This document shows positions 3,001 through 6,000 of a stretch of 64,000 bases of DNA, in pieces. A model generated the notes under the pieces. The model did not search any database. It had not been told where the DNA came from and saw only the letters and a program-made list of their open reading frames with translations. Where the stretch lies: positions 57-64,056 of the forward strand of contig JAFCGA010000004.1 in assembly GCA_017608345.1 (NCBI GenBank), in the 5' to 3' direction. This stretch comes from Candidatus Pacearchaeota archaeon. Lineage in GTDB: Archaea; Nanobdellota; Nanobdellia; UBA10117; JAFCGA01. How positions within the stretch are numbered: position 1 is the stretch's first letter; each line of letters opens with the position of its first letter. A program made the translations under genes and the position numbers.

Positions 3001-6000
3001 ATGGGCAATTGGGTAGTGGTGCTGATGGAGATGGGGCTGAGCCGGTTTGGAATTCAACAGGTTTCATTGGGGGAGCTTATGATTTTGATGGGGAGGATGA
3101 TTATATAACTCTACAAGATAGCAGTGATTGGGTTCTCAATAATAAATTCACCATCACAGCATGGGTGAAATTAGCAGGTATAAGCGAACTATACCCATTT
3201 AGCCAAAGACAAAACGATGATAATCGAATGTACTATCTCTTAAGAAATAGTAATAATATCTCGAGGCTGTTTGTAAAGAGCGGGGCTTCAGTCATAGTTA
3301 ATGTAGAACATCCAGTGCAATATATGCCAAATATATGGTACCATGTAGCCATAGTAGCTAATGGAACTAATTACTCTACTTTTAAAAATGGTATTCTTAT
3401 CAACGCTTCTGCGGAAGCAGATGGTGTACCGGACTTTAATGGTCAGGCATATATTGGTACTGATCAATTTAGCGGAGGTCCGAGTTATTCAAATGGCTCA
3501 ATAGATGATGTCCGAATCTACAACTATGCCTTATCAACTAACCAAATCAAAGCTCTCTACCTCAACAAAACCAACACGATCGTCTCAGCAGAAACCAATG
3601 TTGGTGAGAACTATACTTGTGAAGTCACACCTAACGATGCTACAGTAGATGGAACACTTCTTAATTCAAGTACTTTGATAATTTACAATGCTCCACCAAT
3701 AACAATTGATGCTAACGTTTCGCCATTAACTGTAACGACGTCTATTGACCTACAAGGTTATTGCAATGGAACTGATGTGGATAATGCTACAATCAATTAC
3801 TACTACAGATGGTATAAAGATGGAGCTTTGGACTTGAGTGGTTACAATGGTAACGGTTTCACTCAAGGAGTAGAAGTAAATGTTCATAATCTCTCAGCGG
3901 GGAATACTTCGAAAGGACAGAACTGGACCTTCTCCTGTTTGGCTTATGATGGCCTTTCTAATGCTACTTCATGGCAGAATGGTTCTGTGGTAATATCTAA
4001 CGCAGCTCCAACTCATTCGATTCCATGGTTGGGAGCGCATGTTCCTTACGGGACTTCGGTAGCTTTGGATGATGGTATTGTTGGTTACTGGCAGTTTGAG
4101 TATGATAATGGAACTCATACGATGGATGAGACTGGGTTGAATAACGGTACGTTAGTTGGTGTGAATCTTACTCATGAAGGAAAGGTCGGGAAGGCATATG
4201 AATTTGGAAATGGAACTTGGATTGATACCAATAGCAATGATTTAGGAATAAGCGATCCATCCGCAATAGCTATCTCGACATGGATCTATCCAATAGGGCA
4301 ATCCGAAAGTAGTCATATTGTAAATGATTATAATAGATCTTCGATTAGAGGATGGATATTGACATTAGAGACAGATAATAGACTACACGCAGTCAATATT
4401 AATGGTGCTGGAATAAGAAGAGATAGCTATGCTAATCCTCTCAGCTTAAACCAATGGCATCATATTGTCGCAGTAATTTATCCAAACACAACTTTCCCAG
4501 TTATATATTTAGACGGAAATATAAGTCATAATGCTACAGTTTCTGCTGGAGCGCCGGCGGCCTTATACCGCGGAGGCGGTAACGTAATAATCGGACGGCA
4601 GTCCGCATATAATCTTGGCAATGAAAGATACTTCAACGGCTCAATAGATGAAGTAACCATCTGGAACCGCTCGTTATCAGCAGCAGAGATCTCCGAAATC
4701 TACAACAAATCCAGAGGAACTTTCAATACTTACTCTAACGAAGATATTTCTTGCGCGGTTAATAATACCGCTGATGCTGACTGCTATGATGAAGAAACAG
4801 AAATATTAACTGAAAAGGGTTGGAAATATTTCAAAGATTTAACCAATGAGTCAGTTCTGACTCTAAATCCAGAGACACATGAGCAAGAATACCAAGAGCC
4901 GCTAGCATATCAAAATTACAATGTCCGAGGGGACATGTATAGAATAACAACAGAAAGGGGAGACTTGCTAGTCTCGCCTAAACATAAGGTTTATGCTAAG
5001 ATAGAATCACCGTCGGTAGGCGCTGTCGTGATGCTCGAAAGCCAAGAAAATGACGATTTTTCTAGCCTCATCGACTTCGTACTTAAGGACAAAACTCTTG
5101 CGAATATGGACTCTTCTCTCTCCCTTGAGCGAATACCTCAAGGATTTGTAGCGGAGCGGATTTTGAATAATCTCGCTCATCTTCCGCTTGAGAGCTTTTT
5201 CCAGGACGGGATTTCTACTACAAGCCTTATCAATCTCACGCTTACACTTCGGATGAATAACAGAAGTATAGCTCATTTCAACGACTCAAAGAATTCGTCT
5301 ACAGAATTAAACTTAATGAAAGGTCCTCTTTTCCTTTCCTCTATCTCCTTAGCAAATTCTTCCCGCTGTGGCAGCTCGTCCACCGGATGCCAGTCAATTT
5401 TCTCGCAGAACTTCCAAGCTTTATTTGATAGCTCTCCAGTTTTAATAAATTCGTCAAATATAGTTTTCTTTAATGCTTCTTCCCTACTTAATCTAGACCA
5501 ATTAACCCAAGAGAGTTCTCTAATCCAATGTTTAAGCTCTTCGGATATTGATAATACTACGTTTGCCATTTACAGCTTACCTTCCCGAACTAATTGTTCG
5601 AATTTCCGCAATTGCGCTACTTTCTTTTCTAAGACGCCCCTTAGGAATACGGGCCAATTAACTTCGGGACAGTTATCCATCCTTTCTTTTATTTCATCTG
5701 GAAAGGATAATGTCAGTGTAGTCATTTTACCTTTGGATTCTTTAGATACCATTTCACAGAATCCTGTGGATACACAGGATTATAAAGCTTCCGATTACGA
5801 GCTCGTCAATATCGTAGATATTTATGAGAATCCTAGCGAGAAGATATATTTCCTAGACGAAGCTGGGAATGAGATCTTCGTTGAGTCAATTACTAAAGAA
5901 TATTATTCAGGTAAAATATATGATGTTGACGTTGAGAATAATATTGTTCTAGTTAGACGCGGTGAATTAGTTACTTGGAGCGGTAACTCTGATAATCTAA

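Follow-up and report, generated by a model that had tools for sequence, protein, structure and literature searches.

LAGLIDADG inteins that interrupt ThyX and GTP cyclohydrolase I (P0014, P0023) carry their endonuclease between block B and block F of the splicing domain, and in the cyanobacterial dnaX intein a separately translated gene, again for a LAGLIDADG endonuclease, overlaps the intein in the +2 frame of the same strand, with the intein frame held open and selection acting mainly on the nested gene. Bacterial intein-like (BIL) domains display the same Hint architecture in variable secreted proteins, usually lack a +1 nucleophile and mainly cleave. Here we describe a class-1 intein in which an antisense type II toxin-antitoxin (TA) operon occupies the place of the endonuclease, found in a 64,000-nt stretch of Candidatus Pacearchaeota archaeon DNA (hereafter the window; assembly GCA_017608345.1, contig JAFCGA010000004.1, positions 57 to 64,056 of the forward strand). 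Its N-terminal lobe is 51–57% identical to those of the ThyX and GTP cyclohydrolase I inteins and it shares their ...SGN terminus. Unlike theirs, its cargo is something other than an endonuclease and is encoded out of the intein frame, on the opposite strand; it interrupts a variable surface protein where they interrupt conserved enzymes, and homing cannot account for its persistence. The dnaX intein is the closest precedent we found; it differs in that the nested gene is a same-strand endonuclease gene, whereas the window holds a promoter-bearing two-/three-gene TA operon on the opposite strand.

The exteins are provided by a single open reading frame (ORF) of 8211 aa (204–24839, plus strand) that encodes Laminin_G_3 (LamG) repeats, immunoglobulin-like domains and a C-terminal hydrophobic anchor. 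In the domain search Laminin_G_3 flanked the intein on both sides and Big_3_3/Big_13 were located near the host C-terminus. The intein comprises 402 codons from Cys1 to Asn402 (4782–5987, plus strand) in the host frame and is followed by a +1 Ser codon (5988–5990); its translation is CYDEETEILTEKGW...IVLVRRGELVTWSGN (CYDEETEIL...VTWSGN, then Ser). The N-terminal Hint lobe (about residues 1–76; 4782–5006, plus strand) contains Cys1 as block A and VSPKHKVY as block B (SxxH), and the C-terminal lobe (residues 337–402; 5790–5987, plus strand) contains GKIYDVDVENNIVLV as block F and TWSGN as block G. AlphaFold2 modelled both lobes confidently, with a predicted local distance difference test (pLDDT) score of ~90 for residues 1–76 and 81–94 for residues 337–402, compared to 20–30 for residues 77–336. 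The top Foldseek matches of the intein in the PDB all had the Hint fold (inteins, BIL domains and hedgehog; 6zgq, 1at0, 2lwy, 7cfv), with 2lwy being a BIL structure. The sense frame narrowly passed the TIGR01445 intein_Nterm model (24.6 bits against a cut-off of 24.5) and fell under the cut-off of PF14890 (15.5 bits). Between the lobes lies a sense-frame filler (about residues 76–336; 5007–5789, plus strand) that is stop-free, Ser/Leu/Asn-rich and predicted to be unstructured; its reverse complement comprises the TA operon together with the promoter. An initial annotation, made from the sequence alone, had described this filler correctly in composition and given its length as 245 aa; with the promoter region included it comes to ~260 aa. 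No LAGLIDADG or HNH domain was found in the intein sense frame with Pfam or NCBIfam, and the possibility that the filler is a degenerate endonuclease was rejected because it displayed neither a domain nor a structure. The in-frame intein with Hint blocks A/B and F/G and without a homing endonuclease that the annotation had put forward is therefore upheld by the TIGR01445 match, the two confident lobes and the Hint-only fold matches. These results support the reading of 4782–5987 as a bona fide Hint domain, predicted to splice, with an interior given over to an antisense three-gene RelE-type TA cassette.

Three coupled genes in two frames were identified on the minus strand at 5007–5752, in agreement with the annotation. 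The first gene of the operon, ORF3 (5570–5752, minus strand; 60 aa, ATG at 5752), encodes a small ribbon-helix-helix (RHH)/VapB-like protein presumed to be a DNA-binding regulator. Its stop codon adjoins, in the same frame, the ATG of ORF2 (5273–5569, minus strand), which encodes a putative antitoxin of 98 aa that is RHH-like at its N-terminus and conserved in its C-terminal part (WxFCEKIDWHPVDEL). ORF2 in turn overlaps the toxin gene (5007–5276, minus strand; 89 aa) by the four nucleotides ATGA (5273–5276), the two being in different frames. The toxin passed the cut-offs of PF05016 ParE_toxin (31.5 bits; cut-off 23) and TIGR02385 RelE_StbE (29.3 bits; cut-off 27.9), while its match to TIGR00053 (2e-16, 60.3 bits) was under the cut-off of 87.25, placing it outside that subfamily. 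The toxin-family profile matched M. jannaschii RelE3 (3bpq) and a YoeB in the PDB, and the window toxin retains the family-invariant residues K32, L46, R55, L64, H82, H83, D84 and Y87. It had been announced as a RelE/ParE-fold toxin; the superfamily is right, and within it the protein is RelE/YoeB-like (mRNA-interferase type) and not ParE-like. The N-terminus of ORF2 is paralogous to ORF3, and in 80 metagenomic cassettes an ORF2 homologue immediately precedes the toxin gene. ORF3 homologues in one related locus (L007) bear the precomputed label PF26688 RHH_12. Exact-sequence look-ups of the toxin and ORF2 returned no called gene on record, because the giant ORF masks them. The possibility that the antisense ORFs are spurious was rejected, as family cut-offs were passed and free-standing homologues exist. 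ORF3 and ORF2 are separated by one stop codon and bipartite relatives encode a single antitoxin of ~101 aa, so that stop read-through or a recent split is conceivable.

The cassette displayed putative expression signals of its own. A BRE-like (B recognition element) cGGAAGC (5793–5787) and a TATA-like TTTATAAT (5786–5779) together form a candidate promoter (5779–5793, minus strand) ~30 nt upstream of the ORF3 ATG, and a perfect palindrome, AATCCTGTG-n4-CACAGGATT (5760–5781; 9-nt arms, 100% complementary, 4 nt apart), lies between the TATA box and the ORF3 start. Free-standing cassettes have in common the motif gaAAGGTTTAAATA (BRE and TATA), placed ~45–55 nt ahead of the first ATG and with short palindromes after it; the motif was kept upstream of many embedded homologous cassettes, and palindromes were found at the same position in many homologous cassettes. 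The palindrome is a likely candidate operator for autoregulation, and the spacing of promoter, palindrome and ATG suggests a near-leaderless, autoregulated minus-strand transcript.

Over 5007–5752 the sense frame contained no stop codon, compared to 16–19 in the other two plus-strand frames. When the three minus-strand proteins were held fixed and their synonymous codons redrawn by genome codon usage, a mean of 5.9 sense stops was obtained and 0 stops occurred in 0.04% of trials (P = 4e-4); with uniform codon usage 0 stops occurred in 0.7% of trials. The GC and AT skews were inverted over 5000–5750, as would be expected if the true coding strand there were the minus strand.

When the 402-aa sense translation was searched against proteins, matches extended over its full length, filler included; at the DNA level the matched loci likewise combined sense-frame Hint lobes with TA genes that were intact on the other strand. 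The filler alone, searched against 1.84 billion representative proteins, matched 51 clusters, several of them giant (2–7 thousand residues). A census was compiled by scanning one genome per species with patterns drawn from C-terminal Hint motifs alone; because only Hint motifs were used, the census could not favor open interiors. It yielded 66 loci, almost all from DPANN archaea (such as Woese-, Pace-, Nano- and Aenigmatarchaeota), comprising 81 non-redundant units of an N- and a C-terminal Hint lobe, 76 of which read from one lobe to the other in a single frame without a stop. The interior exceeded 400 nt in 71 of these 76, and 68 of the 71 held an intact antisense operon, antitoxin then toxin; the conservation of the antisense genes in related copies is thereby confirmed. 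Across 61,806 nt of interior no sense-frame stop was detected, compared to 1518 and 2582 in the other two plus-strand frames. The cargo was of at least four TA types: RHH-like with PIN_2; DUF433 with DUF5615 (Mut7-C-like); one or two RHH-like proteins with RelE; and DUF2283 with a BECR-fold nuclease. With a single exception cargo matches were antisense to the host. The overlap measures ~750 nt in the window and up to ~1.9 kb in relatives, some inteins held two cassettes, several inteins were also seen in one gene, and the family inteins recurred at a handful of extein sites. The window element is thus not a one-off but a member of a large DPANN family.

The frame relation between cargo and host was fixed for each cargo family. 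RelE genes (14/14) and DUF433 genes (16/16) were codon-aligned with the sense frame, and RHH-like (77/77), PIN_2 (44/44) and DUF5615 genes (16/16) had their third positions opposite third positions. In the aligned genes sense stops can arise from TTA, CTA and TCA only, and none of these was present among 217 Leu and 115 Ser codons, nor in the window toxin; in the remaining cargo genes TTA and CTA made up 48% and 11% of Leu codons and TCA 40% of Ser codons. In the third-facing-third genes sense stops arise solely from NNY-TAY and NNT-CAN codon pairs. There the codon before Tyr ended in A or G in every case (192/192) and the codon before His/Gln never ended in T (0/491), while aligned genes displayed no bias in the codon preceding Tyr or His/Gln. 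These counts come from open units and so describe how the frame stays open; the test lies in the 76 open units out of 81 and in a control with free-standing cassettes, for which metagenomes were scanned from the toxin side with a pattern derived from a 6-sequence toxin alignment.

In this control the cassette of RelE with ORF2-like and ORF3-like genes was mostly free-standing (most of 80 metagenomic loci). The 78 cassettes without a Hint flank had a median of ~10 stops (range 0–19) in the intein-equivalent frame and 12–13 in the other frames, compared to 0 stops in the intein frame of three Hint-flanked metagenomic cassettes. Eight of the 'free' cassettes also had 0 stops; at least three of their contigs (L078, L082, L127) were open end to end and probably lie in host ORFs with the Hint lobes off the contig. 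Since free-standing homologues have ~10 stops and embedded ones none, the open frame is a property of the embedded state and not of the cassette or of base composition, and an explanation by AT-rich codon bias alone was rejected on the same control. On two of the open contigs (L078, 1–3064; L082, 2–3212) one frame was open over the whole contig, antisense to three to five consecutive cassettes of RelE, PIN_2 and DUF5615/DUF433 types with no Hint lobe on the contig, and these may represent very large multi-cassette interiors.

We consider it probable that a class-1 intein and a type II TA operon form one composite selfish element here, with the operon lying antisense in the endonuclease loop of the intein. 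The giant LamG gene would be transcribed and translated straight across the insert, because there is no stop in the sense frame across the cassette, and the choice among synonymous codons of the TA genes would account almost wholly for the frame staying open. The toxin would need to avoid only TTA, CTA and TCA, because it is codon-aligned with the sense frame, and the two antitoxin-side genes only NNY-TAY and NNT-CAN pairs, because their third positions face third positions. The design fits the antisense orientation only, since stop codons of the TA genes are then read as Leu or Ser on the sense strand. The Hint lobes (1–76 and 337–402) would associate and splice out the 402-aa insert, including the unstructured ~260-aa filler, restoring the LamG repeat. 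The minus strand would be independently transcribed from the BRE/TATA promoter of the cassette to give a small RHH-like regulator, a 98-aa antitoxin and a RelE/YoeB-like mRNA-interferase toxin, with the palindrome over the promoter acting as an autoregulatory operator. The TA operon would gain a landing site in a coding region at little expense to the host, and for the cassette such an insertion would be nearly cost-free. The endonuclease-less intein would gain persistence through post-segregational killing, because a deletion or gene conversion that removes the intein ends the supply of antitoxin, and the same killing logic may stabilize the surrounding recombination-prone repetitive gene. 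Splicing, TA expression and toxicity are here predictions from sequence. Extended to the whole family, the proposal is of 'TA-inteins' as a widespread, hitherto unrecognized and DPANN-specific class of composite selfish element in which TA addiction replaces homing and splicing acts as an insulator, with dual coding over 0.6–1.9 kb, sometimes several cassettes per intein, and perhaps protection of giant surface genes; the case for this broader proposal appears to us finely balanced.

Several points weigh against the composite element. The penultimate residue of the intein is Gly, in the window and across the family, and not the usual His; a penultimate His is usual in inteins, not obligatory, and a non-His residue impairs splicing in some of them. 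The ~260-aa Ser/Leu-rich insert might impede folding or splicing, and an apparently exported surface protein is an unusual location for an intein. ORF2 had no Pfam or NCBIfam match and no family assignment. The small first protein had been called RHH-like in the initial annotation, and this call leans on the label of its homologues and on an NF050799 (VapB-family antitoxin) match of 8e-7 that was under the cut-off, with no match in the local Pfam copy. Addiction is one of several possible roles of a TA operon, and the proposal does not account for the first embedding of a cassette in which ~10 antisense stops are the norm.

The role of the operon is where an alternative survives best. The architecture may be as described and the main TA role regulatory, with convergent transcription and antisense RNA coupling expression of the giant gene to toxin activation, or defensive, by abortive infection. 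Collision between the two transcription units is unavoidable, several roles are documented for type II TA systems, and several cassettes per intein and several inteins per gene are possible. Sequence does not distinguish between these roles; however, PADLOC returned no meaningful match for any of the three window TA proteins, and the interchangeability of cargo types is easier to reconcile with a generic property, of which addiction is an example, than with a specific regulatory circuit. We therefore regard a mainly regulatory or defensive role as unlikely, while addiction itself is a reading that could fall either way.

Splicing of the composite element is predicted from the host gene and from the conserved catalytic residues. 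The host (204–24839) is built of a super-repeat of ~630 aa (LamG and linker) with near-identical boundary motifs at protein positions 880, 2566, 3197, 3838, 4472 and 5104, and just one repeat contains the intein. The six intein-free paralogous repeats read ISCAVNTSSDSDGDNLTYIYNWYKDD. The interrupted repeat reads ISCAVNNTADAD-intein-SDNLTYIYNWYKDD, and removal of the intein gives exactly the canonical repeat length, with Ser replacing Gly at the junction (predicted spliced junction peptide ...NNTADAD-SDNLTYIYNWYK, also written ...ISCAVNNTADADSDNLTYIYNWYK). The catalytic residues were strongly conserved in the family (Cys1 in 49 of 53 units, SxxH in 41, the terminal GN in 44, +1 Ser in 50), and the WSGN/S terminus was conserved in 44–50 members. 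It could instead be that the Hint domain does not splice, being an autoproteolytic or BIL-like module or one retained in the surface protein, in which case the open frame would just permit downstream translation. A variable surface-protein host is a typical BIL home, a BIL structure (2lwy) was among the top folds and the penultimate His is missing. Yet the +1 Ser and terminal Asn are conserved here together with Cys1, excision restores the exact repeat length, and the nearest relatives of its lobes, those interrupting ThyX and GTP cyclohydrolase I, are true inteins that have to splice; these endonuclease-bearing relatives in essential enzymes have the same Gly as penultimate residue (SGN terminus). 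A non-splicing Hint domain thus appears improbable.

The same family comparison bears on whether the antisense genes of the composite element are still under selection. Differences per toxin codon position 1, 2 and 3 were 0.28, 0.22 and 0.52 in embedded-type toxins and 0.24, 0.15 and 0.47 in free ones, so that toxin change fell mostly at third positions, which are first positions of the sense frame. Between the window and its closest relatives toxin identity was 0.62–0.69, compared to 0.25–0.43 for the sense translation, and the family-invariant toxin residues were equally conserved in 43 embedded-type and 72 free toxins. Embedded toxins are thus still evolving as coding genes on the antisense strand. 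Were the sense frame alone to matter, the TA genes being inert relics whose intactness is a by-product and the whole a large mini-intein with a junk linker, the slightly greater change of embedded toxins at codon positions 1 and 2 would be accounted for. The concentration of substitutions at toxin codon position 3, the core residues as invariant in embedded as in free toxins, the retained promoter motif and the antisense ORFs intact in 68 of 71 units despite the divergence of related loci (30–60% identical) all speak against this, and we judge it very unlikely. A chance or recent accident, in which a TA cassette landed in an intein whose host gene was dispensable or dying and the frame is open by luck, could draw on decaying related copies (three broken units in L025, frameshifted units in L050 and L056) and on the tolerance of giant repetitive genes to change, but is effectively refuted by the comparative data, given the window P value of 4e-4, the 76 of 81 units open without a stop in 61.8 kb, the ~10 stops of free-standing homologues, the frame relation fixed per cargo family and related loci that are far from near-identical copies. 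The selection on both strands that the annotation had deduced is borne out by the resampling, the free-standing control and the antisense codon periodicity, and we hold the architecture together with selection on both strands to be very likely.

The fixed frame relations argue for few captures of cassettes followed by spread. In a neighbor-joining tree of 115 toxins ~9 switches between embedded-like and free toxins were counted, 89 aligned residues being too weak to give direction, and Hint-lobe identity was uncorrelated with toxin identity (rho = -0.11, n = 8); both are weak signals that hint at exchange and escape, with swapping of cargo.

Cassettes were also observed at other positions of the Hint domain. 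In loci L031, L051 and L068 the cassette follows the first Hint strand (~residue 13), upstream of N-lobe matches that start at residue 14, and together with L033 (3968–4565), L041 (4439–5004) and L005 (6408–8480) these loci place TA cassettes after ~residue 13, within the N-lobe, or after VLVRR and ahead of the final WSGN strand, so that two cassettes can occupy different sites of one intein. Loci L004 (122–1780; P0006), L035 (4001–5479) and L033 displayed a duplicated C-lobe around a second cassette (N - cargo - C' - cargo - C''), which suggests recombination between inteins or one intein nested in another. Four Hint units occur within 5 kb of one gene in L025 (33–5122), three of them broken by frameshifts or stops, one stop being inside WSGN, and the locus looks like a decaying array. 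In L001 (64–2824) the intein-bearing ORF begins almost at the intein and is flanked by an IS200/IS605-type Y1 transposase gene and an rve-family integrase gene. Four loci with an archaeal-type intein and cargo (L020, L038, L051, L065) were binned as Saccharibacteria, Atribacterota, Hydrothermota and Rickettsiales and are probably mis-binned contigs.

Other genes of the window were archaeal, including FEN-1, CDC48, a class I Trp/Tyr-type tRNA synthetase and a type IV pilus-type ATPase, and a tRNA scan of the window found no tRNA. Directly downstream of the type IV pilus-type ATPase gene cluster, four tandem paralogous genes (41583–47473, minus strand) encode proteins of ~476–490 aa with Kelch repeats (beta-propellers).

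The intein itself is of a known kind; what is new is the class, orientation and coding mode of its cargo. No description of a TA module inside an intein was found in the full-text literature, whose coverage leaves out most subscription journals, so that this is no proof of absence. For the persistence of endonuclease-less inteins, post-segregational killing offers a concrete and testable alternative to the homing cycle. Protein splicing can on this reading mask the insertion of a whole operon into a coding sequence, and natural long antisense overlaps with both strands under selection and simple recoding rules would provide a rare clean model for the evolution of overlapping genes. Gene callers miss the embedded TA genes, none of the three window proteins being on record as a called gene, and report a junk sense translation instead, as in the 51 representative clusters matched by the filler.

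Among known TA systems, the operon resembles archaeal RelBE/YoeB type II modules (M. jannaschii RelE3, 3bpq) in passing the family cut-offs, in its upstream coupled antitoxin and in its promoter-proximal palindrome. It differs from them in lying wholly inside a host coding gene on the opposite strand, with codons constrained so that the other strand remains readable. The likeness to paaR-paaA-parE drawn in the initial annotation is confined to the layout of three genes, the first for a small DNA-binding protein and the last for a RelE/ParE-fold toxin. A relationship in sequence was not detected, as neither ORF2 nor ORF3 had a Pfam or NCBIfam match linking it to ParD/PaaA-type families (PaaR and PaaA sequences were not directly compared); the first two window proteins are mutual paralogues and the toxin is RelE/YoeB-like. 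STALEMATE (PMC12455656) shares with the window an immunity or antitoxin function that overlaps another coding sequence, so that selection acts against disruptive mutations that fall in the overlap. STALEMATE is an engineered plasmid-borne system with the overlap on the same strand (+2 frame), whereas the window system is natural, antisense and chromosomal, and it would constitute a natural counterpart to the synthetic 'sequence entanglement' devised for genetic stability.

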